From positions 754,963 through 818,962 of the forward strand of contig CP064996.1 in the NCBI GenBank assembly GCA_016699995.1: a DNA stretch of 64,000 nucleotides, written 5' to 3'. Below the pieces are notes generated by a model that saw only the letters and a program-made list of their open reading frames with translations, made no database searches and had not been told where the DNA came from. Position numbers and translations under genes: made by a program. The DNA is from a bacterium. Lineage in GTDB: Bacteria; Patescibacteriota; Doudnabacteria; UBA920. Below, piece after piece: positions 1 through 43,066 of this stretch (its first letter is position 1; each line of letters opens with the position of its first letter).

Positions 1-3000
1 AGACTCTTTCGGATGTAAAGCCAGCTTTCTTGCCGGCAATTATCAAATAGCAAGTACCCCTATCTGATCCTCTGTCAGAACAGATTATACTGCCGTCACG
101 CGGAGCAATAAACCCTTCAATCGGCAGCTGCAGATCGCCGGTGGTAGCTGGTACGACAGACTTAAAATTATTAAAGGTATAAGAAAGGAAGGCTCCTGCC
201 GAAGTATAAGGCCTTAACGTGTTATTGCTGGTGACTGTGTATATAGTCCCGTCGGCAGTTTTGATGTTAGCGCCTGCCTTGCTAGCCGGACCCTGTTTGG
301 TGGTTTGCCCGGATTTGGAGTATTCGATAGTAGCAGTAATAACTTCACTGGATTGCCCGTAGGAAGTATACAATTTAGCGTACACGGTCTTGAGCCCATA
401 GTTGCATACTGCCAAATGTTTACACAGATCCCACTGCTTACCAGAGGAGTACTTTTCCTGCCCTACAAAACTGAAGTCGGAGGTATTGGAAATTGCCATG
501 TTGGCTATATCCGAACCTCCATTGAAGGACAAGACAACATTAGAGCTTGATGTAGTTTTTGCACCGCCGTTAATTTGAAGCTTAAATCCACCGGAAGGAG
601 CGACAGGAGATAAGTATGCAATTGACGGCAAACCGCCTCCGACTGAAGGGCTGCCAAAAATAGAGAACACAGAGAACTGCGTGGTGGTGCAAGTAATTGT
701 ATTTGCAGAGGTATTTACAACGCAATCGCTTAACGGACTCCAACTAACGCCGTTATACCTGTAAACTACTAAAGCTGATTCGTTGATCCCTGCCACATCG
801 CTCTCCTGATAGCTAAACGTCAAAGTAATGGCAGAGTTAAAGCTTGTTACAGGGGTATCCAGATTGGTCAAAGATTTAAGGTCGAAAACCAGGCCCACAG
901 GGTTAACCCCGGACGGCTTGCCAATATTCGCCAAGACAGTCGTCTTATCGAGTTCTTTGATTTGGAATGTTGCGTTAGCACCTACGGCCCCCATAGGTAT
1001 GGTCAATTCCAGGCCGTTGGAACCGGAAGTCAATTGGGCGGTTCCGCCAGTGCCATTATTTACGCTCGTAGCAGACTGGGTCACGACTGTAGCAGAGCCA
1101 GCACAGCCAGTAGTAGTGAAGCTATTGGCGCCGCCGGTTGCCAAGTTGCTGGCTGCGTCATTTGATTTAACTCGGAAATAATAGGTAGAACAAGAAGTTA
1201 AATTGGTAAGGTTAACGGTGTGGCTTGTTACGCGGGGAGAAGTATCAGCTTCGCTAGTGGAAGTCCCGTAGCTAGAAGTAAGGCCATATTCCACCATAGA
1301 TGAGCTGTTCTCGTCCGTGGTCCAAGTGATAGACGCAGAATTACTGCCCGGGGTTGCAGAAACTGATGAAATCGACGGTGCGGTGCCATCGGCAGTGGTG
1401 GAATTCACAGATGTTGTATTTCCAGCTCCATTAGAATTGGCAGCTTTGACCCTAAAGTTGTAAGCTGTTCCACTGGACAAACCTGTTACCGTAGCAGAGG
1501 CTGTCGTAGAGGTGCCATCATTAAAAGTGCTCCAGGTGCTCGCCGCTGATTCTTTATACTCAATAATATAGTCGGTGATGCTAGATCCTCCATTACTTAC
1601 CGGAGCGGTCCATGAAAGCGCAACCGAAGTACTGCTCGGATTAGCAGACAAGCTGGTTGGCAACCCAGGATAATTCAATCCTAAAACATTTTTAGTAACC
1701 GTAACCATGCTGCTTGTAACGGTTTTCAAACCGGCATAGCTCCAGTGGTTTGCGTCACGCAAAGCTGCACCTGTGGAATCGATAGCGTACACATTAGGCT
1801 CCGAAGCGGCTAACTCATTGATTGCCGTGTTATAGGTTCCGTAACCCATAGACTGGAACCCTGTGAGAATAATAATCGCTCCGGGCAAATCGGCTTTAAT
1901 CCTGTCCATCCATTCAATCATATTAGTCTTCCAGGTTGAAACGTTATTTCCAGCAATAGCATCATTAATACCTAAGCTTAAAAATACTACCCATTTGCGG
2001 TTTTCCGGCAGCTGGGTTTTGGCAGCCGCTGTACGCTGCAAAAATTTGGTCCAATATGTCTGGCCGACAGCCCAGTTGGTAACTTGAGAACCGCCATGGC
2101 CAGTCTTAACCAAATAAACTTGAGGATTATCTGGGAAAGCATGCTCTTCTGTAGAGTTTGCCAATTGAAGTTCAAAGCCATGACAACAGTCATAATAACC
2201 TTCTAAGCCAGAGTGGTCGCGCAGGTTATTTGTCCCTATATCCAAATTCTCATACAAGAAATTGCCAGAAGTTAGATTCATTATCTGTACCGCCGAGCGA
2301 GATGCCAATTCCCCTACGGTAGCTTGACTATTTAATCCGATACCACCAGAATTGCTTTCGCCGGTAATAACAAAACTCAAAGTACTGATTGCATCGGGCG
2401 TTGCAGAAGCAATGGCTGAAGACGTACCGGGATTGCCATCATTAGAGCCTTTTACTCTAAAATCGTAAGCAGAACCATTTGTTAAGCCAGTAACAATGGC
2501 CTTTAGGCTAGTAGAAGTACCGTCATTAAAAGTCGACCAAGTGGAAGGTTCGGAAGAAAGCTTGTACTCAATAACATAATCGGTTGGCGTGCCTCCCGAA
2601 GTCGGAGCATCCCACCCGAGCAGCACTTGGCGGTTAAAACCGGTTGCAACCAGACCTGTAACTTGACCGGGGGCTTGCGGCAACTGAGGAGTTGCCGAAT
2701 TTGACGCGCTTGAAGCTGCGGAATCGCCCTGAACGTTAGTGGCTTTGACGGTGAAAGTATAGGCTACGTCATTAGTAAGCCCGGTCACAGTGATAGGAGA
2801 GCTGCTGCCGCTGGCTGTAACCCCGCCCGGCGAGGACGTAACTGTGTAGCCAGTAATGGCGCTGCCGCCATTAAAACTCGGTGGTGTAAATGTAACGACT
2901 GCCGAACCATTGCCAGCCGTAGCGGTACCGATTGTCGGGGCATCAGGAACAGTATCCACCGGAGTTTCACCGTAGACAACAACTTCATCAAAGGTACTGG

Positions 3001-5962
3001 CAGTGCCGGAGTTCTGCAGGAACACGGGTTTGTTATTAACCACAACAGCCGTGTTGTGAGTACATACCAAGACATTGTCCTTATAAACTTCAAAACCACC
3101 AGAAATGATTTTCATCTTGTAAATTGCTGCTCCAACGCTAGCCGTACCACAACTCGTTTGGGTCATAGCAGTATTGTCCCAAGACAGCGCTAAGATAACC
3201 GACGAACCCGCTCCAGATATATATACGAGGTAAGCCTTTTTGTTCGCACTTGCAAACTGATAATCACCGTATCCCAAGACGGGACCGGAGCCAGAAATCA
3301 TGCTTGCAGAAATTTCTAGAGAGGTGGAACTGAATACATCCTGGGAGATTAAAGCATTTTGAGCCCAGTTCCCACCTACATAACTATCTGCAATAGTTAA
3401 TGAACCATTTTGTTGAATCTTTCCCGTCGTCCCGCCGGAACCAGTAGGGTCATATTCATACCATTTATCAGTATTAATGGTTGTCCCAGTAAAACTATCC
3501 GTGAGTTGATTCGCCAAAGTACTCGGAGTTACCGAGTTTGAAGCTGAGGATGCCGAGGAAGTTCCAGCTGAGTTGGTAGCGGTAACCGTAAACGTGTAAG
3601 AGACGCCATTGGTAAGGCCTGTCACAGTTAGCGGCGATGATGCGCCAGAAGCAGTAAAACCGCCTGGAGACGATGTCACTGTATAGCTAGTTATAGAAGC
3701 GCCGCCATTATCCACCGGAGGACTAAATGACACAGTGGCTTGAGTATTACCACCTTCTGCTGATACACCAGTTGGGGCATCTGGTGCCGTTGGAGGGCCA
3801 GGGGTTTTTGTAGCAGTTCCGCTAGCGGTGCCAGTGCCTATAATATTCACTGCTTTAACCCGGAAATCATAACTTAGACCGTTGGTTAAACCAGTTATAG
3901 TAGCAGTGGTAGAGGTAGAAGTACCATCGTTAAATGTGGACCAAGTTGTTGGCTCTGAACTCAGCTTATACTCCACTATATAATCTGTAATGGCTGTGCC
4001 GCCGTTACTAGCCGGTGCAGACCAAGACAGCCCAATCTGGGTGTCTCCTCTGCTTGCACCGAGAGAGGTGGGAGCGCCGGGAACAGTCGGGCCAGACACA
4101 GCAATGTTCCATTTAGTAGAGAGATAGTTTTCTAAAATATTTCTTTGATCAGAAGTGATTGTCGAACTATAAGCGATGACTTCAGCAATATCGCCGTTCC
4201 AATAACGGCCGCCGCCGTTAATCATACCTATTGAAGAAGTTGTATTGGTCATACTGGAAGGCAGCTGAAAAACACCAATCCAATATTCATTTAGAGGCGA
4301 GAAGTCGTGGCCGCTAGAAGCAGCAATAGATGTGCCATTGCGGTGAGCCAAAGAGAAACTGCTAGTCGCTGACCCTAATTTAGTAGTACCATCTATCCCA
4401 TTCAAAACATGACCGTTACCTGGCGAGGTTCCTGTAAAATCACCGATCAAACCTGGGTAATTGCTGAAAGCCGCGGAAGTACTCTTTTTGGCAACGATGG
4501 CTACGGTGCGGTATGTAATTGAGCTGCCAATATTAAAATAATCATCACTGCCGTCAAAATTCATTACCGAACGGCCATTAAGGGCATTGGACACTAACGT
4601 CGGACGGGCTGTGCTCGCAGATGTAGCGTTTTTGCCATTTCCGCTTTTGTCATTGACCTGACTGATCCTGTCCCCAGACACGCTCATATTATCCGCATCT
4701 GCCCCGTCTAACCATAGAGCCAAATTAGGAATACTTGGAGGAATTTCTTCGTTTGGAGTAACCGCATTAGATGCGCTGGAGGCTGACGACGTGCCTATGG
4801 CGTTTGTAGCAGTAACTGTGAAAGTATAAGAAACACCATTAGTAAGGCCGCTCACAGTAATCGGGGAAGAGGACCCCGTACCTGTAAAACCGCCTGGGGA
4901 AGATGTCACAGTATAACCAGTAATGGTACTGCCGCCATTAGAGCCGGGCGTGAAGGAAACCGAAGCAGACTCATCACCAGCTACCGCAGTGCCAATTGTA
5001 GGTGCAGCCGGCGCCGTGGGCGCAGAAGGGGTTGCATTGGCAGTACTACTGGCTGTTCCAGTACCGACAGCGTTAATGGCGCTCACTCTAAAATTATACA
5101 GAGACCCGTTGCTTAAGCTTGTAACCGTTGCCGAGGTGGAAGTAGATGTACCGTCATTAAATGTGGACCACGTAGTTGGCTCCGAATTCAATTTATACTC
5201 TACTAAGTAATCCGTGATGGCAGAACCGCCATTCGAACCAGGAGCAGACCAGGTTAGTGCCACCTGGGCATCGCCTGCTTCCGCACTTAAACCGGTAACT
5301 TGACCAGGAGCCGTTGGCGCTCCGCCATTGCCTGTTACTAAGACATCATCGAATGTAGATGCTGCGGCGGAAGATTGCAAAAATATTTTCTTATTGTCCA
5401 GTGCTACCCCAGTACTCTGGGTACACATCAGCACGCCATCTTTATATACTTCAAACCCGCCAGAAATAATTTTCATTTTATATACAGCACCGGCGGTATA
5501 AGTGCCGCAGGTTTGATTGGCCACCAATGTTCCATTATTCCACACTAAACTCAAAGGATTCCCAGATCCTAAAATATCCAGAATGTAAGCCTGAGTTCCC
5601 CCAGATTAGAAATTATAATCACCATATCCCAGTAGCGCGTCTGAGCCTCTGGTAATTCTGGCGGAGACTTCTAAAGTGTCCGAGTCAAATGTATCAACCG
5701 ACGTTAAAGCATTTGTGCCCCATACACTTCCAGCAAAACCCTGGGAAGCAGTTAAGGTGCCGTTCTGTTGAATGTTGCCGGTTGTCCCACCAGAACCGCC
5801 TGTATCAATTTCTTGCCATTTATTCGTGTCGATCGTCGTACCAGTAAAGTCATCCGACAGCAAAGTTGCCGAAAAAACAAAAGGGACAGATGCAAATTGT
5901 CCGATTATCACAGAAGATACCAAAAGAATTACTGCAAAATAATTGCGGAGATTGGAAGTCAT
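1..5962 (-). pseudogene. Giant secreted multidomain surface protein, 3'-partial (runs past coordinate 1). Architecture: signal peptide, LamG/ConA-like jelly-roll domains, many fibronectin type III domains, and an SGNH/GDSL-type esterase domain at about 1700-2400. The reading frame is interrupted by an in-frame TAA at 5606-5608 and by an apparent compensating +1/-1 frameshift pair near 4378-4381 and 4256-4262.
   Basis: Hand translation of the minus strand in frame (codon first base congruent to 1 mod 3) gives continuous, domain-like protein. Repeated FN3-type segments appear throughout (for example, SWSAPASNGGTAITDYIVEYKLSSEPTTWSTFNDGTSTS..LTNGLSYDFRVKAVN). LamG-type motifs are present (MINGGGRYWNGDIAEVIAYS). 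SGNH esterase blocks are present (ITGESNSGG, LSLGINDAIAG, DANHW). The N-terminal 118 codons carry a signal peptide and are separated from the rest by a single in-frame TAA. Low GC-skewed antisense ORFs are the only track ORFs in this region. Confidence 0.6.
5606..5962 (-). CDS. N-terminal 118-aa fragment of the giant surface protein (signal peptide plus the start of a LamG-like domain), terminated by an in-frame TAA.
   Basis: The ORF-track ORF MTSNLRNYFAVILLVSSVIIGQFASVPFVFSA... ends GYGDYNF followed by TAA. The codon directly after the stop continues the same domain (SGGTQAYILDILGSG...), which aligns with the paralogous internal copy GYGDYQFASANKKAYLVYISGAG. Confidence 0.7.
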   Translation of the reverse strand: MTSNLRNYFAVILLVSSVIIGQFASVPFVFSATLLSDDFTGTTIDTNKWQEIDTGGSGGTTGNIQQNGTLTASQGFAGSVWGTNALTSVDTFDSDTLEVSARITRGSDALLGYGDYNF

Positions 5963-6021
5963 TAGATTGTTATTTATATTTTTATTTCAAGTCTTAAATC
6001 TGGCTCTATTATAGCATAATC

Positions 6022-6060
6022 TGACAAAAAATAAAAGGCCTGCTTTACAGAGCAAGCCTT
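6022..6060 (-). terminator. Rho-independent terminator downstream of pyk.
   Basis: Hairpin aaggcctgct-ttacag-agcaagcctt, followed on the minus strand by a T-run. Confidence 0.5.
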
Positions 6061-6069
6061 CGATTGAAT

Positions 6070-7500
6070 TTATTTTACATTCACGGCCTGAACTAAGTTC
6101 ATGCGCTGTCCTAACGGATTCCCCGCGACCAATACAACTTTCTGCCCTTTATGAATTAGCTTCAACCTTTTCGCCTCCGCTACAAAATATTCCAACAATC
6201 CTTCCACATTCTTTAAGGCCGTTAAGCTTTTTACGTATAAAGGCCTAATCCCCCAGAATAATGCCATCTGCCGATATACTTTAGGCCTGTCTGTAAGAAT
6301 TAAGATCGGGGCCACGGGCCGTTCGCGAGAAACAAAGCGGGCGGTGTAGCCGCTCTCGGTAGTACCGATAATTGCTTCTGCCCCGACACCAATCGCCAAA
6401 CGCAGAACAGCGCCAGCAATTAAGGAAGCCTTGTAATCTTCTATCTCGGCCTCCATGCTAAACGGCTGGGCCGGCATATCATCGTAAGGGGAATTTTCTG
6501 TGTCTTCTATGATGCGGCGCATTTCGGCCACAGCTTCGATTGGATAACTGCCGGTGGCGCTTTCGCCAGAAAGCATTACTGCGTCGGCGTGGTCTATAAC
6601 TGCATTCGCAACGTCGGAAACTTCGGCGCGCGTAGGACGTGGGTTGCGGATCATGGAATCGAGCATTTGGGTCGCCACGATAACCGGTTTAGCTACGCTG
6701 TTGCATCGCGAAATTAAATCCTTTTGGATCATCGGCACTTGCGAGTCCGCAATCTCTACGCCCAAGTCGCCACGTGCTACCATAATACCGTCGGCCTCCC
6801 GCAGGATACGATCGAAATTTTCCACGGCCTCCTTGCGTTCGATCTTCGCAATAATCTTTGGAGCGGAGCCGCCTTTGCGCAAATGCTTGTTTATCAGTTT
6901 TCGCAAATTGCGAATATCAGCGCCATTGCGAACGAACGATAGCGCGACGTAATCCACGTCATTTTCTAACCCAAACTTTAGGTCAGCCAAATCCTTGTTA
7001 GTGATAATCGGGAATGTAATAGTACTGTCTGGTAAGTTAACGCCCTTGTGAGATTTCACCACTCCTCCGTTAACAACCTTGCAAGTGATCTTCCCATGAG
7101 TCTTAGAGCCAACCCTGCTCGGCGCCACACTTACCACCTTAAGTTCCATTAATCCATCTTCTATTAAAATGCGCTCGCCCCGCTTAACAGAACGGCTAAT
7201 ATCGAAGTCCATATCAAAATCCCTGCCCAGCATAACTGTCTGACCCTTTTTTATAGCGACAGGCTTCTCTAATTCTCCAATTCGGATTTTAGGACCCTGA
7301 AGATCCTGCAAGATAGCTACCGGCTTGTCCAGTTTCTTAGAAGCGTCCCGGATGGTCTGCATCAACTGTTGATGGTTTGCATAACTGCCATGAGAAAAAT
7401 TAAGGCGGGCCACATTCATCCCGTTCGCTACCATTTTTGTTAAAATTTTTGGATCTTCACTGCTCGGTCCGATCGTTGCTATGATTTTTGTTCGCTTCAT
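6070..7500 (-). CDS. pyk: Pyruvate kinase.
   Basis: 476 aa. MKRTKIIATIGPSS...NVARLNFSHG...KIENxEA...MVARGDLGVEI motifs typical of pyruvate kinase. Confidence 0.9.
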   Translation of the reverse strand: MKRTKIIATIGPSSEDPKILTKMVANGMNVARLNFSHGSYANHQQLMQTIRDASKKLDKPVAILQDLQGPKIRIGELEKPVAIKKGQTVMLGRDFDMDFDISRSVKRGERILIEDGLMELKVVSVAPSRVGSKTHGKITCKVVNGGVVKSHKGVNLPDSTITFPIITNKDLADLKFGLENDVDYVALSFVRNGADIRNLRKLINKHLRKGGSAPKIIAKIERKEAVENFDRILREADGIMVARGDLGVEIADSQVPMIQKDLISRCNSVAKPVIVATQMLDSMIRNPRPTRAEVSDVANAVIDHADAVMLSGESATGSYPIEAVAEMRRIIEDTENSPYDDMPAQPFSMEAEIEDYKASLIAGAVLRLAIGVGAEAIIGTTESGYTARFVSRERPVAPILILTDRPKVYRQMALFWGIRPLYVKSLTALKNVEGLLEYFVAEAKRLKLIHKGQKVVLVAGNPLGQRMNLVQAVNVK

Positions 7501-8958: not shown

Positions 8959-9229
8959 CATAATTCCTCCTACGGTTTCTATTTTGCAGCAATTGCGATA
9001 GCTAGAATGACATGAAAGATTCCCCAAACGATGTAAATAGAGTGCCACCCGAAGTCCCTGAAACTCCGATGAAGCCTGTGACCTCTCAACACGCCTGTAA
9101 AAATGAAAAACGCGCCGATAATAATCTGAGTGTAAGGGCTCCAATACCATTCCATACCACCATCCTCCTCTGCAACTGTTGTTTTCTTAATATATCAAAT
9201 TCCCGCACCCTTGCAAACCGTCATAGCTA

Positions 9230-9255
9230 AACAAAAAACCCGCCTTTAGGGCGAG
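9230..9255 (-). terminator. Rho-independent terminator closing the 23S-5S transcription unit.
   Basis: Minus strand: CGCC-taaa-GGCG-like GC hairpin followed by TTTTTT. Confidence 0.45.
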
Positions 9256-9265
9256 TTTATTGTTA

Positions 9266-9380
9266 AAGGGCAGCTACCTACTTTTGCACTGGCATGCACC
9301 AGACTATCATCGGCACGAGCGCGTTTTACTGCTGAGTTCGGGATGGGATCAGGTAGGACCGCACTGTAAATGCCACCCGG
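9266..9380 (-). rRNA. rrf: 5S ribosomal RNA.
   Basis: The reverse complement contains CCGAACTCAGCAGTAAAACGCGCTCGTGCCGATGATAGTCTGG...AGTAGGTAGCTGCCC, which aligns with the bacterial 5S consensus. Helix I is 5' GGGUGGC / 3' GCUGCCC. The ends are approximate, within a few nt. Confidence 0.8.
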
Positions 9381-10053
9381 CTGGCAATTCCTGCTATTAC
9401 GGCAAGCCGTAAAAGAGAAACTACCAGCTAGAAGGCATTTAACCTTTTAACTTTGAAAACTAAATAGTGGTAACGAGTTTTGCCGGTTTTAAACCAGCAC
9501 CATACTCTATTGCAAGACACTCAAACATTAACCGCGATTTGCTATTACAAATTGCTTGTCAATGATTCGTATAATCCCTTTCTAAAAAGAAAGAAATAGA
9601 TTAGAACTTTCGGTTGATTAGTATTGCTCGGCTCAATTTATTACTAAACTTACACCTGCAACCTATAAAATCGCCACTTTTTAATCCAGGCAAGCCCTTC
9701 ATAAAAAATATTGATTGAAATACGCAGTAGTCTTCTGCGAACCTTTCGTATCCCGAAGGATACAACGAAACCTAGTCTTATGGACAGCTTCGCGCTTATA
9801 TGCTTTCAGCGCTTATCTAAACTATACCTAGCTACCCCGCCATGCTCCTGAAGGAACAACGGGTACACCAGAGGTATATGCATCTCGGTCCTCTCGTACT
9901 AGAGACGCGCCCACTCAAGTTTCGTACACCCACAGCAGATAAGGACCAAACTGTCTCACGACGTTTTGAACCCAGCTCGCGTACCACTTTAATTGGCGAA
10001 CAGCCAAACCCTTGGGAGCTTCTTCACCCCCAGGACGTGATGAGCCGACATCG

Positions 10054-10431
10054 TACCTGAATCCATACTTTCATATGGTGCAGACTATATCTTCATCTTA
10101 TCAACGACGTTAGGCTGGTAGGCCATAGTCTGTTTGTTTATGTTGCTAAGCAACATGATAAGAGTCGGCGTGTTACCTTGCGCTACTCATTATGTAGCCG
10201 ACAAAGTCTCCTCTTTCGAGTCAGTCGTTACGGGGTCAACGCTAATACTAGCGCGACTTCCCACGGTATCGCCGTGTAATACTTTTCTAACATACCACAG
10301 TATTACTTACGGGTTCACCGTTATAAGCCGATTTTATTTTCTTTCTATTATATCTAGAATAGTTTTACCTATTCTAAGACGGACGAAAGACCACAGTATG
10401 AGATCGCTCTCATAGCACCCCGATTAAGTTA
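10054..10431 (-). other. About 378 nt ORF-less insertion in 23S domain V at the position equivalent to E. coli about 2499/2500. Putative group I intron or intervening sequence.
   Basis: The flanks reconstitute the conserved GGCACCU|CGAUGUCGGCUC. The insert carries an AAGATATAGTC S-element-like motif followed by a CCATA-TGAAAG-TATGG hairpin (P9-like) about 45 nt from its 3' end. There is no ORF of 60 aa or more. Confidence 0.5.
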
Positions 10432-11189
10432 AGGTGCCAAACCTTCTCGTCTATGTGGACTATTGGAGAAGATCAGCCTGTTATCCCTAGAGTAACTTTT
10501 ATCCGTTGGGCTTTGCGTCTTCCACTCGAACGCATCGGATCACTAACTTCTGGTTTCCCACCTGCGCGAGTCGCCACTCTTGCAGTCAAGCAGGCTTATG
10601 CGTTTGCACTACCAGCGCGATTTCCATCCGCGCCTAGCCTACCTTAATAAACGCCTCCGTTACCATTTAGGAGGCAACCGCCCCAGTTAAACTACCCACG
10701 AGCCACTGTCCTTGATCAGGTTAGAATCAAGTTAGAATCAACATTCACACAGGGTGGTATTTCACTATTGCCTCCATTGTCGCTAGCGCGACAACTTCAA
10801 AGGCTCCCACCTATACTAAACAGTGTAAACACTGATTCAATAACACGCTATAGTTAAGCTTCATAGGGTCTTTCCGTCTTGCTGCGGGTAGACGGCATCT
10901 TTACCGCCATTGTAAGTTCATCGGAGTGTTCGTTAAGACAGTCCTCTACTCGTTATGCCATTCGTGCGGGTCGTAACTTACACGACAAGGAATTTCGCTA
11001 CCATAGGACGGTTATAGTTACCGCCGGCGTTCATCAGGGCTTGGGCTCCGAGGTTGCCCCAGGAGCTTTGACCTTCTGACACTGGCCAGGCATCAGCCCG
11101 TATACATCAGCTTGCGCTTTAGCACGGACCTAAGTTTTTGATAAACAGTCGGGAGAGGTCATTCGCTGCGGCCTGTTTAACATGCTGGG

Positions 11190-11712
11190 TAAATGGGCGG
11201 AGACTAAAGTTTTTCGTAACCTTGACCTAGCTTGGCACCAAGCGTTTAGTTTACGATTATTTTAGACTCCGCAGCTCGTCGGAAGGAGGGTTCCGTACGA
11301 CGAACAAGAAATGGAATGGGAAGACAACCGCTAGATAGCAGTTATATTCACCTAGAAATTAGGTGAGCAAAGCCTCTTAACAACTGAGCCGGGCGGCGTC
11401 ATTGTTTTACTGCAGCTTAGAAGCTTTGCTCACCACGGCCTACCGGCACTCGCTTCACCCCCTTGAAAGTATGAGGCGGTGCTATTCTTACCTACCGGAA
11501 GAATTCCAGAATTGGCAGTATGGCCGAAACAAAAGTGGGACACACGAGAGGGATTGAACCCCTGACCTCTGCCGTATCAAGGCAGCGCTCTACCCAAGTC
11601 GTAATAACTAGGATCTACCCGGGTAGATGCCTAATCTTCGTACACTGAGCTACGTGCGTCATTAACTTTTATATTTTTCTTTTTTCCATTTACCCAGCAT
11701 GCAAACAGGCAA
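11190..11712 (-). other. About 520 nt intervening sequence in 23S at the helix-63-equivalent site (after about E. coli 1700), closed by a 24/25 bp inverted-repeat stem.
   Basis: 5' arm CCTGTTTGCATGCTGGGTAAATGG (rc of about 11688-11712). 3' arm CCATTTACCCAGCATGTTAAACAGG (rc of about 11190-11215). Nearly perfect complementarity with one bulge. The conserved 23S sequence resumes directly outside both arms. Confidence 0.65.
11530..11660 (-). ncRNA. tRNA-Ile(GAU)-like element embedded inside the 23S intervening sequence, carrying a 47 nt insertion in the D-loop.
   Basis: rc reads GACGCAC-G-TAGCTCAGT-[47 nt insert containing palindrome ATCTACCCGGGTAGAT]-GGGTAGAGC-G-CTGCC-TTGATAC-GGCAG-AGGTC-AGGGG-TTCAATC-CCTCT-CGTGTGTC-CCA. 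It has an acceptor stem, D-stem, anticodon stem with a GAT loop, T-arm GGTTCAATCC and 3' CCA. It resembles, but is distinct from, the genuine tRNA-Ile at 36229..36305. Confidence 0.5.
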
Positions 11713-12382
11713 GGTATATACCGAAGGTACACCTGCTGTATTGCCGAGTTCCTTAACGAACATTGATCCGGACGCCTTAGGATTCTCTCCTCATCCACCT
11801 GTGTCGGTTTGCGGTACGGACAGTTACACGCGTAACCACGACGCTTTTCTTGGCACCTTGGTTCACCCAAATTGCTCTTGCGAGCTTTCTCCATATCTTC
11901 GAGATTACACCAAGCTAAAGTCCCGGAGGACTTAAGCCCAGTTTGAAATTCCGGATTTGCCTAGAATTTCTCCCTACGGATACAGCGACGTACATAGTCA
12001 GAGTACGCTCAGGCTACCATGATGCGTCCCGTCTTGGATAACGCATAACTGGTCAGGGAATATCAACCCTGTTTTCCATCGGATGCACCCCTTGGGGCGC
12101 ACTCTTAGGATCGACTAACCCTGGGACGACGATCGTTGCCCAGGAAACCTTGGATATTCGGCGAAGGGGATTCTCACCCCTATATATATTACTTATTCCA
12201 ACATTCTCACTTGTGCACAGTCCACGAGCCCTTACGGGTCTCGCTTCTGCCCAGTACACAACGCTCCTCTACCGCTATACAAAAATAAATTTATGCATAA
12301 CCCGCGTCTTCGGCACCTAGCTTAGCCCCTATATATTGTCGGCGCAGGATCGCTTGACCAGTGAGCTGTTACGCTTTCTTTA

Positions 12383-12419
<37 letters not shown>

Positions 12420-13259
12420 GAGCAATCCCACATCCTTTGCACTATAGCTAGGATTTGGGGGCCTTAGACGGCGGTGTGGATTCTTCTCCATTCGACCAAT
12501 GGACCTTAGAGCCCATGGTCTAACTGCCACGTTATTTATTCATCAGAATTCGGAGTTTGGTTCGAATCCGACAGTTTCCCACCGGAGTCCGATTCAGTGC
12601 TCTACCTCTGTGAGGAACACGTGACGCTAACCCTAAAGTTATTTCGAGGAGAACCAGCTATCACCCGGTTCGATTAGAATTTCTCTTCGACCCACAGCTC
12701 ATCCCCTGTTTTTGCAGCAACAGTGGGTTCGGACCTCCCGTTGCTTTTACACAACGTTCATCCTGGCCATGGGTAGCTCACTCGGGTTTCGGGTCTAGCG
12801 CGTGCGACATTAAAGAGTATATTCAGCGTCCAGTCGAAACTGAAAACTGAATATATCTTTATACGGACTATTAATCCTCGCTTTCACTACAACTTCGTGT
12901 TTGTTAACACTTAGTTAAGCCACACACAACTAACTCGTTGGATCATTCTTCAATAGGCACGCCGTTAACCTGCGCTGCGGGCAAGCCCGAGCGTTAGGTC
13001 TTCGACTCCTTGTAAGTATATGGTTTCAGAGACTATTTCATTCCCCTTCCGGGGTGCTTTTCACCTTTCCCTCACGGTACTCGTTCACTATCGGTCACTA
13101 TGAGTATTTAGCCTTACGTATTAGTCTACGCTAATTCAGTCCAGATTTCTCGTGTCTGGACTTACTCAAGAAAAAGATCAGGAATTGTATGATGTTTCAC
13201 TATACGGGACTGTCACCCTCTTTGGTCCGCCTTTCCAGGCGTGTTCTGCTACATAGCAC

Positions 13260-13480
13260 ACTAATGTTCCTCTGCGGAATTACTGTTCCGCAACGTCAAT
13301 TCTTATAACGCCTATACTGCAACGCCAGTAAGCTTTAAATTTAATCTCGCTAGTAAACTAGTTTGAAAAAATAACACAGTAAAGGTTTGGGCTAATAGAT
13401 AATTTATTCACCAGACACCAGCATAGGTGTACGATGAATAAATTTCTATATATCTCCGCGTTCGCTCGCCACTACTAACG
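13260..13480 (-). other. About 185 nt AT-rich expansion in 23S domain I (helix 9/10 region).
   Basis: Between the conserved GGCGAGCGAACGCGGAG and ACACGCCTGGAAAGGCGGACC the window has about 230 nt versus about 45 nt in E. coli. It contains the hairpin-forming inverted repeat aatttattcacc...gatgaataaatt. Confidence 0.45.
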
Positions 13481-14250
13481 GAATCGACAAGTGCTTGCGC
13501 ACTCTTTCTTTATTTTCCTCATGCTACTGAGATGTTTCACTTCGCATGGTTCCCGCTCATTTATACCCCACGGTATAAAGGCATGCATTCTTCAAATGCA
13601 TAGGTTTCCCTATTCAGAAATCTCCGGATCAAAGGTTATTGCCACCTCCCCGAAGCGTATCGCCGGCTATCGCGTCTTTCATCGGCTCATAGTACCAAGG
13701 CATCCACCATATACCCTTCTCTGTTTTAATCTACAAGATTATACAGAATTATTTTTGGCTTGCGCCAAAAGTTTTGACAAGCAATTCGTAAAAACAAATT
13801 ACTCGTCGGATACAATGTTTGATAATTGGTTCAGTACAACATCTATTCGCTGTACTTAATTTATTATTCTCACTCTGCGAGCTTTTCAGCCCGCTTATGA
13901 TTTTACTTACAATATTGTTCTGTTGGTTGAAGACAGAACAAATTACCACTATTTAGTTTTCAAAGTACATGACTGATTTCGGCTTGCTCTATATTATAGA
14001 GCGAACTGGTGACTCGAACGACAACTTTCCAGTTGAAGATTGAACGAGGCACAGAAATATTTCCAGTCAGATAACTACTGCTCTGCTAACTAAGTTAGCA
14101 TCCGGTAACATCTCGCCTGATTCCCTAAGAATTAATGGAAGGGCTACATACCTGAGAGCAGTAAATACCTGATTAGAAAATTGTGTTTGAAAGAACGGGT
14201 GGAGAAACAAATTTTGGCGACAAAAAAACCGCAAATCGCGGTGTAAGCTA

Positions 14251-17320: not shown

Positions 17321-18202
17321 CTAGGGCACAGGAATATATACGGTATAGGTTCTGGTTAATCCCAAATAATTCGCCACGACCTTCAATACTTTTTTTCCTA
17401 TAAACGGTAGGCCCTTTGCGGTAGCCCCATCGGCAGCATAAGAAGTGATATTCAATTGAACGTTATTCACCGGATCCGTATTCTGAACGATCAGCTCATA
17501 CTGATAATCGGGGAAAAAAGTGGAAATAGACATCGGCGGTCCTTCTGATAGATTACCATAATCGGTAGTAGTTTCTCCGGCTTCGGGGTCTTTAGGTATG
17601 CCGCGCAAGCTAATGCGAAGTTGACCTGTATTGCCTACCGCAACCCGCTGCAACCGGATTAATCCATACTGCAAGCTATAGTCATTTAACGAGTATAAAG
17701 GAAATACTTGTGTCTCCCCGGCAAAAATAGTTGTCAGTTTAGGAGTTTCGTCAAAATCCAAAGGCTGAGGATCACCGTCTTTTTCTGTGGGAAGCTCTAG
17801 TCTCACGTTGCCTATCAAGCATATCCCGTTTCTGGAGGGGAAGCAGGAAGGCACATCCATTAGCGTAACGTTATCACCGTCACTACGCTCGTTAACATAG
17901 CGTTTGTACTGAAACAAGGCCTCTTCGGTTACGCCCAAAGTCGCATACAAGTTAGGTTCGCTGCGAACCAGGTCGCGGGAAGCCCGAAGTTCTATAAAGA
18001 CGATAGTCGCCAAGCTGAACACGATAGCAGTTATAGCTGCCAACACAAGCACCGCCATCATTAGCGATACCCCTTCTTGCTTATGGTTCTTATAGAGGTG
18101 GAATGTCATATGCATCGGTAGAGATTGTGCTCTGATAATTAATAACTGACTCGTCGCGCAAGCCTTCGTATACCCTGAAAGCTGGCTAAAGATCGTTACC
18201 AT
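17321..18202 (-). CDS. Pilus-associated membrane protein with a degenerate prepilin-like N-terminus. The start is probably internal.
   Basis: KQEGVSLMMAVLVLAAITAIVFSLATIVFIELRA resembles a prepilin leader plus hydrophobic helix. It is the last gene of the pilD/minor-pilin operon. Confidence 0.4.
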   Translation of the reverse strand: MVTIFSQLSGYTKACATSQLLIIRAQSLPMHMTFHLYKNHKQEGVSLMMAVLVLAAITAIVFSLATIVFIELRASRDLVRSEPNLYATLGVTEEALFQYKRYVNERSDGDNVTLMDVPSCFPSRNGICLIGNVRLELPTEKDGDPQPLDFDETPKLTTIFAGETQVFPLYSLNDYSLQYGLIRLQRVAVGNTGQLRISLRGIPKDPEAGETTTDYGNLSEGPPMSISTFFPDYQYELIVQNTDPVNNVQLNITSYAADGATAKGLPFIGKKVLKVVANYLGLTRTYTVYIPVP

Positions 18203-18272
18203 TGGCTGGACGCCTTTATTATTACTTAAAGGATCTGTTGTTGGCCTAACAATAAATCTAAAAGTATCCGGA

Positions 18273-18683
18273 TTAATCGTTAAAGTTCTGAGGATTAATT
18301 GACTCTTCCGTTGACGTGGAAGAAGTATCTCTGCGGAGCATCAGCTCTTTCGTGTCAGTTTTAAAGTAGAAGCATAGCCTGTCTCCCGTATAGGTGATAA
18401 TAGCCAAAGACTGGTTGGCATTATTAGCATAATTACTCGCTGCACAATTGCCGCTTCCATTGTAATCCACACGCCCATTGCGGATTTCCCTAGACAATAC
18501 CTCTGTAAAGTTGCGGGCCGCTTGCGAAACCTGACGCTTTGCCTGCACCTCACGATTGATGCGCAGAACATAATTGAAGAGCACCAATACGGCGGAGATA
18601 ACCATGGCAAAAATCCCGGTAGCAACAATAATTTCTACTAAGGTGAATCCAAACTGCTTTTTATGAATTAAACGTTGAGACAT
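18273..18683 (-). CDS. Type IV pilin-like protein (prepilin-type N-terminal cleavage/methylation domain).
   Basis: KKQFGFTLVEIIVATGIFAMVISAVLVL N-terminus. Confidence 0.7.
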   Translation of the reverse strand: MSQRLIHKKQFGFTLVEIIVATGIFAMVISAVLVLFNYVLRINREVQAKRQVSQAARNFTEVLSREIRNGRVDYNGSGNCAASNYANNANQSLAIITYTGDRLCFYFKTDTKELMLRRDTSSTSTEESINPQNFND

Positions 18684-18684
18684 G

Positions 18685-19371
18685 CTAATAATTCTTCCAG
18701 TTAGTTAGATAGGTTTCTAAAGTAATCAAACAAGAATTACTCGTAGGAACATCAGCAGATGCCGGACATCGCTTGTCTGTCCACCAAACATCCACCCGCA
18801 CTCTTACCCTCGGCCCGGTTGATTGGTCAAAAGGAGGAAAATCCTCTGTAGTCAAAGTGATTTTACGGCTGAATCCAGAATCACCGGTACTATCTGCGCT
18901 TGGCTTAAAAAAACCGGTCGCGAGATTGCTAGTATCATAGTCCAGGCCATAGCCGCTATTGGTTTGAGTAAGTTCCCAGTAAGAGTGTTCATTGTTGCTG
19001 TTAGCATTAAAACCCAGTCTATAAGTTCTAGAAATAGCACCACCCGGGAAAATGCTGTAACCCCCGCCAGCCCCATTTAGCCACCCCTGATAGCAATTGC
19101 CGGCATCGGTCTGGGTGTAAAAATCAAAACAATTAGTGCTAAGACTGGTTCTTAGCCAGTTGGTATCTCGCATGTTTTTTACAGCCTCCATGCCTTCACG
19201 GGCCAATCCCGTAGCCTGAAGCTGTTTAGAGATGCCGCTAGTGGCATTTAAGCCATATACAGCCAGTCCAACAGCCGCAGAAATTCCCATGGTCAAAACT
19301 AAAGCCGCGACCATGGTCTCGATTAAGGTTTGTCCACGCTGATTTGTTTTTAAATTTTCATCGACTAACAT
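18685..19371 (-). CDS. Type IV minor pilin-like protein.
   Basis: QRGQTLIETMVAALVLTMGISAAVGL prepilin-like N-terminus. Translationally coupled to its neighbours. Confidence 0.6.
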   Translation of the reverse strand: MLVDENLKTNQRGQTLIETMVAALVLTMGISAAVGLAVYGLNATSGISKQLQATGLAREGMEAVKNMRDTNWLRTSLSTNCFDFYTQTDAGNCYQGWLNGAGGGYSIFPGGAISRTYRLGFNANSNNEHSYWELTQTNSGYGLDYDTSNLATGFFKPSADSTGDSGFSRKITLTTEDFPPFDQSTGPRVRVRVDVWWTDKRCPASADVPTSNSCLITLETYLTNWKNY

Positions 19372-20218
19372 TCGTATAGCACTTATAACTTGAAGCTAAC
19401 AACGTCCGAACAGTCTCCACCAGAATTCTATAAAACCCGCCTTCAGTACATTCCGGAGGAAGTGGTGGATCTACTGTCTCATCGCCGCCGCCGGTAACAT
19501 CGCCGGTCCCATCTCTACCTCCACCACCGTATTGACCGCCACCACTCCCATCACCGTTTCCATCGCCGTCGCCAGGATTATCGATTGCTGGACCACCTAA
19601 AAAGTTTGGTCCTGGTTCTGCTTGCTCAACTTTTCCACTCAAGCCATGCACCTTTAAAACCTTGGAACTGCCGTCCTGAGAATGAGACAATGTTAAATCC
19701 ATGCTGTAGTTCGCCCAGGGAGCTAGTTCTGGGAAATTTTGAGCAACTGCCGAAATGCTGGAATCGCAAATACTTGAACCGTACAAATATGTTTTTCCAA
19801 AAACAACACCAGAAATAACAAAGGCACACTTATAATCTGTCTCAACACCGGACGAATCTCTGAGCGTTATATCGCCCGCAGTAACACCTGACGGTAGGTT
19901 TATCGTTTCAACATCATAGTAAGAAAAAGATGTGCTAGCAATCGCGTGGACAGTATAAGAAGACGCACCGCCTTCGAAGCGGGTCAGATAATACTTTGGA
20001 GCTTCGCCGGTCGGCAAGTTACGGGAAGAAACGGCGTAAGCTTGCACCTTACGAAGGTTAGTAATAGTTTCATTCTGGGCAATTGCTAAAGTCCGGCGAG
20101 GCTTTTGCTGGTTCCAAATTACAATGCCGGCGCTAGTTAACAGCACCATAATCACAAATACCACCATCAATTCGATGACGGTAAAACCTTTTTGTCGGTT
20201 TGTCTTTTGATTTCTCAT
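19358..20218 (-). CDS. Type IV pilin-like protein with a Gly/Asp-rich C-terminal region.
   Basis: KGFTVIELMVVFVIMVLLTSAGIVIW N-terminus. The C-terminus contains a GDGDGNGDGSGGGQYGGGGRDGTGDVTGGGDE low-complexity tract. Confidence 0.7.
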   Translation of the reverse strand: MRNQKTNRQKGFTVIELMVVFVIMVLLTSAGIVIWNQQKPRRTLAIAQNETITNLRKVQAYAVSSRNLPTGEAPKYYLTRFEGGASSYTVHAIASTSFSYYDVETINLPSGVTAGDITLRDSSGVETDYKCAFVISGVVFGKTYLYGSSICDSSISAVAQNFPELAPWANYSMDLTLSHSQDGSSKVLKVHGLSGKVEQAEPGPNFLGGPAIDNPGDGDGNGDGSGGGQYGGGGRDGTGDVTGGGDETVDPPLPPECTEGGFYRILVETVRTLLASSYKCYTNVSR

Positions 20219-20248
20219 AGTTTTGAGCTTTTCTTAAGTATAACACAA

Positions 20249-21070
20249 TTAAACTAGGCCAATTAAGCCAAAGTACCAGTTAGCCAACTGCAAACCAAAC
20301 ACTATAGTGATCAGGGCAGCTACCGATAAAAAGGTACCAAACGGAATTTTGCTTGTGAGCTCTTTCTTTCCGGCAATAAGCAGCGGCAAAGATACTGCAC
20401 TGCCTAACAAAAAAGCAATAAAATAACATACCCATATCTGCGGAAACCCAAACATCGCCCCCAAAAACAAGCCCAGCTTGGCATCACCCAAGCCCATCCA
20501 TTTACCCTTGGAAATTTTATGTAAAATATAGAAAGGAACAAAACCGGCAATCATGCCAAGAAGGCTGTTTAAGAGATACAACCCTTGCCCATCCAGCGAC
20601 ATGCCGGAATACCATCCAAAAAACGCAACCATCACCAGCAGTACCGCCGTCGCTGGATATACTACCTTGTTTAAAATTAAATAATGTTCTAGGTCGATAA
20701 TAAAAACGATTAACAGCACGGAAAAAATAAACCAATACCTCACAATGAGTACGCTGTCGATTAGCCAGTTATAAGCAATAGGCGACACCAGAATTACCGC
20801 CAGAACAAATAAAGCCCCGGTAATAAGCTCGATTAAAGGATATCGCAAAGAAACCTTCTTCTTGCAATAACGGCACTTGCCGCCAGAAACTAGATAGCTA
20901 AACACAGGAACCAAATCTTGCCATCCCAGAACATGCTTACAATGTGGGCACTGGGAACGGCCGGTAATTTTCTGATCCCGCGGCAATCGCCATATGAGAA
21001 CATTTAAGAAGCTGCCGATAAACCAACCAAATAAAAAAACCGCCAGTAAAATAAGAGGATGTGTTTCCAT
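20249..21070 (-). CDS. pilD: Prepilin peptidase (A24 family).
   Basis: 273 aa polytopic membrane protein. N-terminal CPHCKH...CRYCKK zinc-binding motif plus conserved A24 peptidase blocks. TAATG overlap with the upstream ORF. Confidence 0.8.
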   Translation of the reverse strand: METHPLILLAVFLFGWFIGSFLNVLIWRLPRDQKITGRSQCPHCKHVLGWQDLVPVFSYLVSGGKCRYCKKKVSLRYPLIELITGALFVLAVILVSPIAYNWLIDSVLIVRYWFIFSVLLIVFIIDLEHYLILNKVVYPATAVLLVMVAFFGWYSGMSLDGQGLYLLNSLLGMIAGFVPFYILHKISKGKWMGLGDAKLGLFLGAMFGFPQIWVCYFIAFLLGSAVSLPLLIAGKKELTSKIPFGTFLSVAALITIVFGLQLANWYFGLIGLV

Positions 21071-21456
21071 TATTTTACTGGAGCTTTAATGATGTTTACG
21101 CCTTCCTTAAAACCGCTGACTCCTTTAGTGAGACAAAGTCGCAATTCATAGTCGTTTCTAAAATTATTGGAGTACTGAAACGTCGCAGGGCATTGCTCAG
21201 AAGGATATTGCTTAGGAGGAAAGCCGCTCACGTATTGGCGCATAAGATTATCGTCTTTAAACTCGTCTGTTGCCGGGTAGCGATTTTGGTCCTGATAAAA
21301 ATATTCCAATGCTTGTTTTATGGCGTTAGCGTCTTTAACTGCCTGCCGGCTTTGGCCAGCGTGCTGACCCGCGCGGTAAGCCCACCATAATAGCAATACT
21401 GCCAGCGCTATAAAAATGACCCCTGCGGAATACTTAAGTATTTTCAACTTATTCAT
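21070..21456 (-). CDS. Hypothetical membrane-anchored protein, first gene of the pilD operon.
   Basis: 128 aa with an N-terminal TM helix. Stop overlaps the pilD start. Confidence 0.4.
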   Translation of the reverse strand: MNKLKILKYSAGVIFIALAVLLLWWAYRAGQHAGQSRQAVKDANAIKQALEYFYQDQNRYPATDEFKDDNLMRQYVSGFPPKQYPSEQCPATFQYSNNFRNDYELRLCLTKGVSGFKEGVNIIKAPVK

Positions 21457-21537
21457 GCATATATTATAACATTTATACCCAGGTTTAGGTTATCTCAAAA
21501 CCAAAAATACGCCCGTAAAGCCTGTGCCTCTTTTTCT

Positions 21538-22839
21538 TTACCGACCTTGAAGACTGAGAATATGAAAGATTGTCCTAAGGATAATTTCTAGATCAAACCA
21601 CAGGCTGCGATGCTTGATATAATAAAAATCATATTGCAATTTAAGCCTAGTTCCCTCTACAGAATTGGCATACACATGCAGCTGGCTCCAGCCGGTAAGA
21701 CCAGGCTTAACAATATGGCGTTCGTTGTAATAAGGGATCTGCTCAACAAGACTTTCTACGATCGCCGTCTGCTCTGGCCGCGGACCCACAAGGCTCATGT
21801 TGCCTAAGAAGATGTTCCAAAATTGAGGCAGTTCATCCACGCGAAGCCTGCGCAAAAACTTGCCCACTCGAGTGATGCGCTTATCTTGTTCTTGAGTCCA
21901 GATATCTGTTGGACTGCCGGAGGTCATGGTTCGAAGTTTGAAAACGTTAAAAGGCTTTCCGCCTTGTCCGATCCGTTGCTGAACGAAAAATACCGGCCCG
22001 GTAGAATCTAATTTGATTATTACGAACAAGAAAGGCAGCAATATAGCCAACAGCAGACTTCCTAGTGCACCAACTACTAAATCTAACACCCGCTTAATGG
22101 CATCGCTCAAGCGCCGTGGAGCATAATTGACCGAGCGTAAAAACCATATCTCGCTTACCTTTTCTAAAGGAACCATGCGCTGAGTAAGTTCTATAAATTT
22201 GTGGTATTCCAAAAATTCCACACCTTGCCGCTTATGCTCAAATAAGCTGCGCAATTCGGAATCGTTTAAGGAAAAATCAACAGGTAAAATTACTGTTGCT
22301 CTATTCAAGTGAATATCTAAAGAATCCAAATCATACCTACCAGCAAACCGCCAGCCCAAAGTCCGGTGCACATCTAAATACTGTTCTATACCAACATGCA
22401 AGTTTTGCTCATACACCAACGGATGCAAATACAAATGCTTTTTCCAAATCCTCGGAAGGATATTCTGGATCAAACTATACCATAAAGCCAAGCCCAGGGT
22501 GGTGATTAGCAAATGAACCACTAAGAAGCGTCTTGGTGTTAGAATTAATTCCGGCTGAAAGTAAAAATAAGCCACAGCTATTATACCGCAAGTAAGCATC
22601 GCGCCCAGCAAGCGTGAAATAACCAGCAAGGTAGAACGGAAGGTAGCAAGGTCAAATAAGGTATATATGAATAACACCACCAGCCATATCGCATAGATCA
22701 CCGAAAAATGCACTAAGTGGTCTTGCCACCCCTGTTGCGGCAAACCGCCTGGATACCAAATCATAATAGTCAACACCAAGCCCGCATAAAAGAACAGCAA
22801 TGCTGGCGCTATTAGTAACCAAAATCTATTCATGGTCAA
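21538..22839 (-). CDS. Undecaprenyl-phosphate sugar phosphotransferase (WbaP/WcaJ-type initiating glycosyltransferase).
   Basis: 433 aa. N-terminal TM helices. C-terminal bacterial sugar transferase domain: LSDAIKRVLDLV...IKLDSTGPVFFVQQRIGQGGKPFNVFKLRTM...DELPQFWNIFLGNMSLVGPRPE. Confidence 0.8.
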   Translation of the reverse strand: MTMNRFWLLIAPALLFFYAGLVLTIMIWYPGGLPQQGWQDHLVHFSVIYAIWLVVLFIYTLFDLATFRSTLLVISRLLGAMLTCGIIAVAYFYFQPELILTPRRFLVVHLLITTLGLALWYSLIQNILPRIWKKHLYLHPLVYEQNLHVGIEQYLDVHRTLGWRFAGRYDLDSLDIHLNRATVILPVDFSLNDSELRSLFEHKRQGVEFLEYHKFIELTQRMVPLEKVSEIWFLRSVNYAPRRLSDAIKRVLDLVVGALGSLLLAILLPFLFVIIKLDSTGPVFFVQQRIGQGGKPFNVFKLRTMTSGSPTDIWTQEQDKRITRVGKFLRRLRVDELPQFWNIFLGNMSLVGPRPEQTAIVESLVEQIPYYNERHIVKPGLTGWSQLHVYANSVEGTRLKLQYDFYYIKHRSLWFDLEIILRTIFHILSLQGR

Positions 22840-23947
22840 TAATTGTTAACTCGATCAATTTCTTGAGGTTTTCCCTGAATCTGCCATAGCTGTACTCTCC
22901 GGTCACTCTGGCCAAAGCTGCCTGCCCATACCTGTGACGCAACTCAGGATCATCTGTTAATCTCATTATCGCTTGACGCAAAGCAGATTCATCAGCCGGC
23001 CTAACCGTTAGACCTGTGTACTCGTGCAGACTAACTGTAGGAACAGCGGTCGGAAGATTAGTATTAATTACCGGCAGGCCGTGCGACATAGCCTCCAGCT
23101 GAACCAACCCAAAGGCTTCGGATTTAGCAATCGACGGCAGTACAAATATATCGCTATCGGCGTAAAGCGCGGACAAATCAGCAACCGGTGGGATAATTCT
23201 TACATTAACTAACTCTAAATCTTTGATTAAATCCTTTAGCTGTTTTCTCAATGGCCCTTGGCCAACTATGGCAAGCTCTGCATCCACGCCAGCCATGGCT
23301 TTAATCAAATATTCATAGCCTTTATAGTATACCAACCTGCCAACGGACAAAATCTGGACAATCTGATTAGCGGAGTTACCCGAACCTTTCTCATTCACTT
23401 TTTTAGCAGGCAACTGTCCACCCAAAAATGGAATAACTATAAGCTTACTCCTACAATTATTTAGTAAATTAGAATTCTCAGCAATTGCTTCATGAGATAC
23501 AATCACCCGTAAAGCTTTTTGCAGAACCATTTTTAGTAGCGGCCTAATAAACATAGCCATGGCTTTTTGCCTAACAATATCGGAATGATACCAAACCACC
23601 ATAGGTTTGTTTTGGGCGTAGAGCCAGTAAGCAAAGAAGCCGAATGGAAAGGGGTGGTGCAAAATGATCAGATCATAATTGCCTGCTATCTCCTTAAATT
23701 TTTTTAGAAAGCTCCACGACAGCGGCATGCCAAAAGCCACCCCTGCCCTGCTTTGCCTGTAGATTGTATTAGCGCTGCCATTAAAGCCCGAACGCGCTAC
23801 CTCGACAGAGTCGTGCTTGTCTTCTGCGAAACACAGCACATCGCCTTCAATATTCTCATTGCCAAAAACCTGGTGGATATCTCTGACCACTGTCTCTATC
23901 CCACCAATGTGAGGATGAAAATATTTATTTACCTGAAGAATCTTCAT
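22826..23947 (-). CDS. Glycosyltransferase family 4.
   Basis: 373 aa. GGIETVVRDI...EAFGLVQLEAMSHGLPVINTN motifs. Confidence 0.75.
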   Translation of the reverse strand: MKILQVNKYFHPHIGGIETVVRDIHQVFGNENIEGDVLCFAEDKHDSVEVARSGFNGSANTIYRQSRAGVAFGMPLSWSFLKKFKEIAGNYDLIILHHPFPFGFFAYWLYAQNKPMVVWYHSDIVRQKAMAMFIRPLLKMVLQKALRVIVSHEAIAENSNLLNNCRSKLIVIPFLGGQLPAKKVNEKGSGNSANQIVQILSVGRLVYYKGYEYLIKAMAGVDAELAIVGQGPLRKQLKDLIKDLELVNVRIIPPVADLSALYADSDIFVLPSIAKSEAFGLVQLEAMSHGLPVINTNLPTAVPTVSLHEYTGLTVRPADESALRQAIMRLTDDPELRHRYGQAALARVTGEYSYGRFRENLKKLIELTIIDHE

Positions 23948-25063: not shown

Positions 25064-25072
25064 AACTGCATG

Positions 25073-27920: not shown

Positions 27921-27947
27921 GACTTAATTATACACTGGCCGGGGATA

Positions 27948-27982
27948 CAAAAAAACCAGCCCGAAGGCTGGTTTTAATTTTG
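27948..27982 (-). terminator. Bidirectional Rho-independent terminator after pilA.
   Basis: aaccagcc-cgaa-ggctggtt flanked by A7 and a T-rich run. Confidence 0.6.
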
Positions 27983-27999
27983 TTTCAATCAGCTGAGAA

Positions 28000-28413: not shown

Positions 28414-28544
28414 CGTTCTCCTTGGATTAAAGAAGTCACAGCTCCTCCAACTGATCATCTATTATTAAATTTACTTATCTTAATTATACCATATGTTGAG
28501 CAACTGCAAGCGCAATTATCAACAAGTTGGATATTGAATGGAAA

Positions 28545-29748: not shown

Positions 29749-29750
29749 AA

Positions 29751-30821: not shown

Positions 30822-30830
30822 AGTTTGTTT

Positions 30831-31256: not shown

Positions 31257-31265
31257 AAGGCTGGT

Positions 31266-41603: not shown

Positions 41604-43066
<1,463 letters not shown>

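Follow-up and report, generated by a model that had tools for sequence, protein, structure and literature searches.

A single in-frame TAA codon interrupts the gene of a predicted giant surface protein in a Patescibacteria-like genome

The interrupted gene and its modules

The window analysed here is a stretch of 64,000 nucleotides from a bacterial genome (contig CP064996.1, positions 754,963 to 818,962), and the subject of this report is a TAA codon that lies in frame inside a gene for a very large predicted surface protein at the start of the window. Translation of the window gives a minus-strand frame of 1,987 codons (2-5962) with exactly one stop, the TAA at 5606-5608 (TTA on the plus strand), which occupies codon 119. 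Upstream of it lies a shortened N-terminal open reading frame (ORF) of 118 amino acids (5606-5962, minus strand, ATG at 5960-5962), which is present in the ORF-finder list, covers a signal peptide and the first half of a ConA-like domain, and gave no Pfam match on its own. The ORF opening at 5962 reads MTSNLRNYFAVILLVSSVIIGQFASVPFVFSATLLSDDFTGTTI, and the peptide around the stop reads LLGYGDYNF, then the stop, then SGGTQAYILDILG. Past the TAA, 1,868 codons are open in the unchanged frame, which runs off the window start; at 45% G+C, an open frame of this length is not due to chance. The stop lies within one gene and one domain, and it is a substitution that leaves the frame unchanged. The coordinates, quoted peptides and frame continuity reported in an earlier inspection of the letters alone (the sequence-only reading) were all found to be correct on retranslation and in the ORF listing.

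All modules of this gene are encoded on the minus strand. A predicted Sec-type signal peptide, recognised by eye, spans 5870-5962 (amino acids 1-31, MTSNLRNYFAVILLVSSVIIGQFASVPFVFS, followed by Ala 32), and the orthologues have an equivalent hydrophobic N-terminus that ends just ahead of AATLL(S/T)DDFTGTTI. The N-terminal ConA-like (GH16/CBM66-like) beta-sandwich follows at 5330-5869 (amino acids 32-211, 180 residues), with the stop at its midpoint. An internal paralogous ConA-like copy was located at 2969-3517 (amino acids 816-998). With the stop masked, the N-terminal domain aligns with this copy at 55% identity over 183 amino acids (E = 1e-67), continuously across the stop, so that the domain continuity noted in the sequence-only reading holds. 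The rest of the gene (2-5605) comprises at least eight FN3 repeats, the second ConA-like copy, a SASA/GDSL-type carbohydrate esterase domain at 1715-2374 (amino acids 1197-1416; PF03629, E 1.8e-12, and PF13472, E 5.4e-07) and further beta-rich regions. Separately, the region of amino acids 405-620 (about 4103-4750), starting IPPSIPNLALWLDGADADN, is conserved in the orthologues P0003, P0033 and P0057 and has no Pfam match at E = 10; possibly it is a further lectin-like module, the third of the protein and so far uncharacterised.

According to its AlphaFold2 (AF2) model, the internal copy folds as one all-beta sandwich, with high scores (predicted local distance difference test, pLDDT, 92.8; predicted template modelling score, pTM, 0.89). 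A Foldseek comparison of this model with the PDB returned GH16 beta-glucanases and CBM66 at probability 1.0 and template modelling (TM) scores of 0.6-0.74. The top matches were 3d6e, 1mac, 4bow and 4b1m, and the sequence identity to the structural matches was 9-16%. Counted on the model, the stop falls at residue 89 of 183, within the loop that separates strands 79-84 and 94-100. Going by the model, neither half of the sandwich should fold alone.

Sequence searches with the domain returned far less. Neither copy matched any Pfam family, LamG and GH16 included, at E values up to 10, and a PDB profile search with the domain-only alignment (A3) gave marginal matches to GH16 porphyranases (E 0.09-0.16). 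Matches of the same profile to a designed beta-propeller (SAKe) were discarded, no individual stretch being significant. The search with alignment A2 was also set aside; it was dominated by FN3/titin matches because the homologues carry FN3 repeats. The domain had been called LamG-like in the sequence-only reading; this name is right at the superfamily level (a ConA-like jelly roll) and fails at the family level, where no Pfam LamG match was found and GH16 and CBM66 are nearest. The candidate strand for the GH16 ExDxxE motif reads LE(V/I)SA(R/x)(I/M)T, with no Asp and no second Glu, as read by eye on alignment A3 with strand equivalence assumed. Judged from its sequence, the ConA-like module is more likely a binding module than an enzyme.

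The ancestral codon and the orthologues

The protein database, GTDB genome contigs and metagenome contigs of the Joint Genome Institute (JGI) supplied the relatives, and the codon aligned with the stop was read in each. All 15 of the nearest N-terminal-type copies (at least 58% identical) have Gln at this position, encoded by CAA in 11 and by CAG in 4, and none of these 15 has a stop there. In the closest relative, L005, the neighbouring codons are conserved, the stretch reading AAT TTT CAA TCT GGC, compared with AAT TTC TAA TCT GGG in the window. The internal-type paralogues instead have Ala, Gly, Ser or Asp at the stop position. The sequence-only reading saw Ala (GCA) opposite the stop because it had compared the domain with the internal-type paralogue. 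That residue is indeed present in the paralogue; as the ancestral state it does not stand, since the N-terminal-type copies hold Gln, one transition from TAA. Read from the aligned codons, the window allele differs from a conserved Gln codon by a lineage-specific transition, C to T in the first codon base (CAA to TAA, plus strand 5608 G to A).

Orthologues proved to be intact across this position. Five of them are colinear with the window protein at 64-72% identity and are read in one frame through the position of the stop, aligning with window amino acids 8-1766 (L005), 8-1594 (L006), 5-1771 (L008), 8-1158 (L009) and 5-1770 (L010). Those of L008 (2314-8031, about 1,900 amino acids) and L010 (5923-11304, about 1,790 amino acids) are complete ORFs with a signal-peptide-like N-terminus. 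The orthologue comparison that the sequence-only reading had proposed as a check was in this way obtained, with single-frame orthologues across the stop and Gln as the ancestral residue. The orthologues found in genome assemblies sit in metagenome-assembled genomes (MAGs) labelled Saccharibacteria, Patescibacteria group and, in one case, Gammaproteobacteria.

The C-terminal end of the L008 and L010 proteins (e.g. TKEAVIRFQLANKLLGDGIVGPMTRSKLINN) resembles, by eye, the PG_binding_1 peptidoglycan-binding motif. An end of this kind, if true, would fix the protein to the cell wall; in the window, the gene is cut off before its C-terminus is reached.

Several damaged relatives were considered as further disrupted alleles. 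The split in L007 (about 9114-9374) was rejected, as it coincides with an N run and is a scaffold gap in the FN3-repeat or ConA-like part. The nearest partial relative (P0033/L068, 71%) was uninformative as a second interrupted allele, having an N run at about 315-325 and a coverage of 1.6; its gene call begins at an internal Met (MKIIS). L001 (10001-15276) was rejected as a true disruption, being multiply frameshifted into at least four called genes on a contig with other split genes. The housekeeping genes for a beta-lactamase-fold/RMMBL protein, phosphoglucomutase and TruB are also split on that contig, and the breakage of L001 suggests an error-prone assembly and not biology.

In L019, which belongs to a related population, the orthologous gene has gained one base in each of two homopolymers (at about 6152 and about 8403), one change being from G4 to G5 and the other apparently from A3 to A4. 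L022 and L003, which share 97-98% nucleotide identity with L019, are without these indels and are open across the first of the two sites. The L019 indels are either real OFF alleles or homopolymer sequencing errors. A recurrent pattern of disruption in this orthologue was not accepted, L019 alone being left as possible real variation, which is too little for such a claim. Finally, in P0046, a JGI contig product of 405 amino acids, the N-terminal ConA-like domain is fused in frame to phosphoglycerate kinase sequence; this fusion is probably a chimeric contig or a gene-calling artefact.

Origin and consequences of the stop

TAA encodes Gln in some eukaryotic variant codes, and Gln is the orthologous residue here, which would fit a reassignment of TAA to a Gln codon in this organism. 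The terminators of 57 long non-overlapping ORFs in the window were counted as TAA 36, TAG 13 and TGA 8. Since TAA is the main terminator, it is not reassigned: the 36 ORFs end in TAA at positions that fit normal gene ends, no further in-frame TAA occurs among the 1,987 codons of the gene, and the genes neighbouring it have products of normal family length. Reassignment is effectively refuted by this terminator usage. The statement in the sequence-only reading that all other genes use TAA was too strong, given the TAG and TGA terminators; its conclusion that the genome is not recoded is supported.

A long frame, a stop and a second long frame occur in succession at six other places in the window. 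At four of these, the two frames are neighbouring genes that belong to different Pfam families (PilB-like/receiver, receiver/PilT-like, methyltransferase/glycosyltransferase and RNase Y/GNAT), and a fifth, at 18341, has a Pfam match in the upstream ORF only. Among the cases compared, which left out the one at 45441 on the plus strand, no second domain-splitting stop was seen. As no other within-domain interruption was found in the window, the assembly does not look error-prone.

We favour a genuine nonsense allele, fixed or polymorphic, to which we give a probability of roughly 65%. A C-to-T (GC-to-AT) transition is the commonest spontaneous change, and the interrupted gene, at 6 kb or more, offers mutation a larger target than any other in the window. 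The downstream frame sets a limit on the age of such an allele. In the 1,868 codons after the TAA, 551 of the 16,812 possible single-base changes (3.3%) would create a stop, and no secondary stop is present. Under neutrality, about 90 substitutions (about 1.6% divergence) suffice to bring the chance of zero new stops under 5%; this bound counts substitutions, and indels would tighten it further. The undamaged frame means that the mutation is either very young or not real.

Several observations weigh against a genuine nonsense allele. The absence of secondary damage suits a base error as well as it suits a very young mutation, and one base restores the exact consensus codon of the orthologues. 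No relatives above about 72% identity in the N-terminal domain were found in the protein, genome-contig or metagenome-contig searches, and the gene index held no exact match to the 118-amino-acid ORF or to the adjacent pyruvate kinase. If the assembly is metagenome-derived, the stop could also be a minority or polymorphic allele.

The main rival is an error of base calling, polishing or consensus, by which the organism would have CAA (Gln) and an intact gene, the A at plus-strand 5608 being an artefact. Besides the pristine downstream codons and the one-base repair, this reading can draw on artefacts in the same gene family in other assemblies, namely the N-run gaps of L007 and L068 and the homopolymer indels of L019 and L001. 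Those artefacts, however, are indels and gaps and not substitutions, and the site lies outside any homopolymer or repeat. Among the approximately 57 window ORFs there are no frameshifted or split genes, and the rRNA genes are correctly assembled. Moreover, an assembly of this kind seldom has wrong substitutions in its consensus, and a random substitution makes a stop in only about 3% of cases. We give an error a clearly lower probability than a real mutation, though not a negligible one.

Programmed or regulated readthrough, or a suppressor tRNA, could also yield useful full-length protein, with the stop tuning expression. The wholly intact downstream frame would fit this, and near-cognate decoding of UAA by tRNA-Gln would bring back the ancestral residue; rare near-cognate readthrough at UAA does tend to insert Gln. 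Against it, the stop is absent from all 15 closest copies, and efficient suppression would do harm throughout a genome that relies chiefly on TAA to end its genes. Both release factors, RF1 and RF2, recognise UAA, which leaks less than the other stops; the context here is TAA-T, and a U after the stop makes for strong termination in E. coli. The 100 nucleotides 3' of the stop fold no better than shuffled sequence, and no stimulatory RNA structure was detected there (5500-5611, minus strand; minimum free energy -22.3 against a shuffle mean of -25.5, z = +0.95). A scan of the 64-kb window for tRNAs gave tRNA-Ala(TGC) and tRNA-Ile(GAT) and no others. We consider useful readthrough very improbable.

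A contingency (phase-variable) locus or a selected ON/OFF switch, of which the stop allele would be one reversible state, is equally improbable. Large surface proteins are typical targets of switching, and L019 carries its two +1 homopolymer frameshifts where its 97-98% identical relatives L022 and L003 have none. Those indels, however, are at other sites and are perhaps sequencing errors. No tandem repeat, homopolymer or invertible segment was found at 5606-5608, and a nonsense mutation of one base can revert no faster than the basal mutation rate. No tandem repeat lies at the stop, no RNA structure follows it and no relative shares it, all of which goes against a programmed switch as it does against readthrough. 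Of the options left open by the sequence-only reading, the expression switch found no support, there being no reversible element at the site and no relative with the stop. The intact orthologues, the single interrupted domain and the use of TAA as the main terminator fit the remaining ones and allow a ranking: a nonsense mutation is favoured, a base-call error is the main rival, and readthrough is little supported. Even taken jointly, readthrough, switching and recoding account for a small share of the probability.

Returning to the nonsense allele, we propose that the ancestral Gln-119 codon CAA would have become TAA by one C-to-T transition, very recently, in this lineage. The product of the intact gene would be a secreted, probably wall-associated multidomain surface protein of about 2,000 amino acids, of an adhesin/esterase type. 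Its predicted order of modules is a signal peptide, a ConA-like module of carbohydrate-binding type, FN3 repeats, a second ConA-like module, a SASA/GDSL esterase and more FN3/beta domains. Translation of the interrupted gene would stop after 118 residues, in the middle of the sandwich, and give a secreted half-domain fragment. Candidate restart codons listed from the sequence are present downstream of the stop, and no convincing Shine-Dalgarno motif was seen upstream of them; a re-initiated product would be without the signal peptide and half of the domain. Because the stop is in mid-domain and a re-initiated product would have no signal peptide, the full-length protein is expected to be lost. 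It would be effectively absent save for trace near-cognate readthrough, which would probably insert Gln and so give the wild-type sequence. In our best reading, the surface-protein gene is a pseudogene in the making or else carries a loss-of-function mutation at the level of the strain. We infer three things here: that the base is correct in the organism, that full-length protein is lost, and what role the protein has.

For annotation, we recommend a single interrupted gene that joins the 118-amino-acid ORF to the long one after it, marked as a pseudogene or as a possible sequencing error; the two should neither be entered as separate genes nor be taken as evidence for recoding in a genome of the candidate phyla radiation (CPR). 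If the stop is real, the strain is without one of its largest surface proteins, which could bear on host attachment or glycan interaction. Large surface proteins with FN3 and lectin domains are thought to matter in Saccharibacteria (PMC8080830, PMC10633639).

It is also conceivable, although we think it unlikely, that the stop is both real and selectively favoured, as an OFF allele in one strain of an episymbiotic Saccharibacterium, the giant surface protein being one that binds a host or glycans. Such an allele could, for example, escape a phage or host factor that targets the protein, and near-cognate Gln readthrough would still give traces of the wild-type protein. Together with the L019 frameshifts, it would suggest that genes of this orthologue group are inactivated in nature repeatedly and independently.

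Genomic setting and comparison with known systems

The gene immediately upstream encodes pyruvate kinase (6070-7500) and is followed by a terminator-like hairpin with a T run (6034-6061, minus strand). Since this hairpin follows the pyruvate kinase gene, the surface-protein gene is expected to have its own transcription start in 5963-6033. Further along the window, the 23S rRNA gene (9597-13731, minus strand) is 4,135 nucleotides long compared with a 2,925-nucleotide model, which corresponds to about 1.2 kb of insertions. A group I intron match lies inside it at 10062-10376 (minus strand; 41 bits, E 3.5e-8, under the gathering score). The 5S rRNA gene (9265-9380, minus strand) adjoins the 23S gene, and the 16S rRNA gene (41605-43071, minus strand) is about 28 kb from the 23S-5S pair, with tRNA-Ala and tRNA-Ile (35759-36305, plus strand) between them on the opposite strand. 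This arrangement, with unlinked rRNA genes and 23S insertions, looks CPR-like. A type IV pilus-type cluster occupies 17321-33071 on the minus strand and includes a PilB-like T2SSE ATPase (31266-33071), a receiver-domain protein (30831-31256), a PilT-like ATPase (29751-30821) and an N-methyl-motif pilin (18273-18683). From the rRNA layout, the pilus genes and the MAG labels of the orthologues, the window looks like part of a CPR/Patescibacteria genome.

The ConA-like module can be compared with the known ConA-like lectins and glucanases (GH16 lichenases and laminarinases, CBM66 and LamG); its AF2 model superimposes on the GH16 enzymes and CBM66 at probability 1.0. It differs from them in having no Pfam match to E = 10 and only 9-16% identity to the structures.

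At the level of the whole protein, with more than 1,900 amino acids, a signal peptide, FN3 repeats and lectin-like modules, the product resembles the giant surface proteins of CPR/Patescibacteria, which in their FN3/lectin type are well known from CPR episymbionts. In Vampirococcus, giant membrane proteins with fibronectin and other adhesion domains have been proposed to act in host attachment (PMC8080830). In the Saccharibacterium Southlakia epibionticum, the glycan-binding FN3-domain protein SEML1_0890 and a lectin-like VCBS-domain protein are essential by transposon sequencing (Tn-seq) (PMC10633639). The window gene differs from these in being interrupted; it is likened to them by its domains, from which its putative role is also taken.

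The case shares with the recoding of UGA to Gly in Gracilibacteria and Absconditabacteria a stop inside a continuous frame and a CPR-type genome. The codon here, by contrast, is TAA and not TGA, occurs once, is found in no relative, has no downstream structure, and is the commonest terminator in the window.

The closest parallel is found in the nonsense pseudogenes and truncated alleles of large bacterial surface proteins, which likewise have an early stop made by one transition, intact orthologues, a standard code and an undamaged remainder of the ORF. There is no difference in kind; what is new is confined to the lineage of the host (Saccharibacteria/Patescibacteria-like) and the protein concerned. 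The interruption first noticed in the letters is confirmed, and it is ordinary in kind: a standard nonsense-interrupted gene that calls for no new decoding mechanism.

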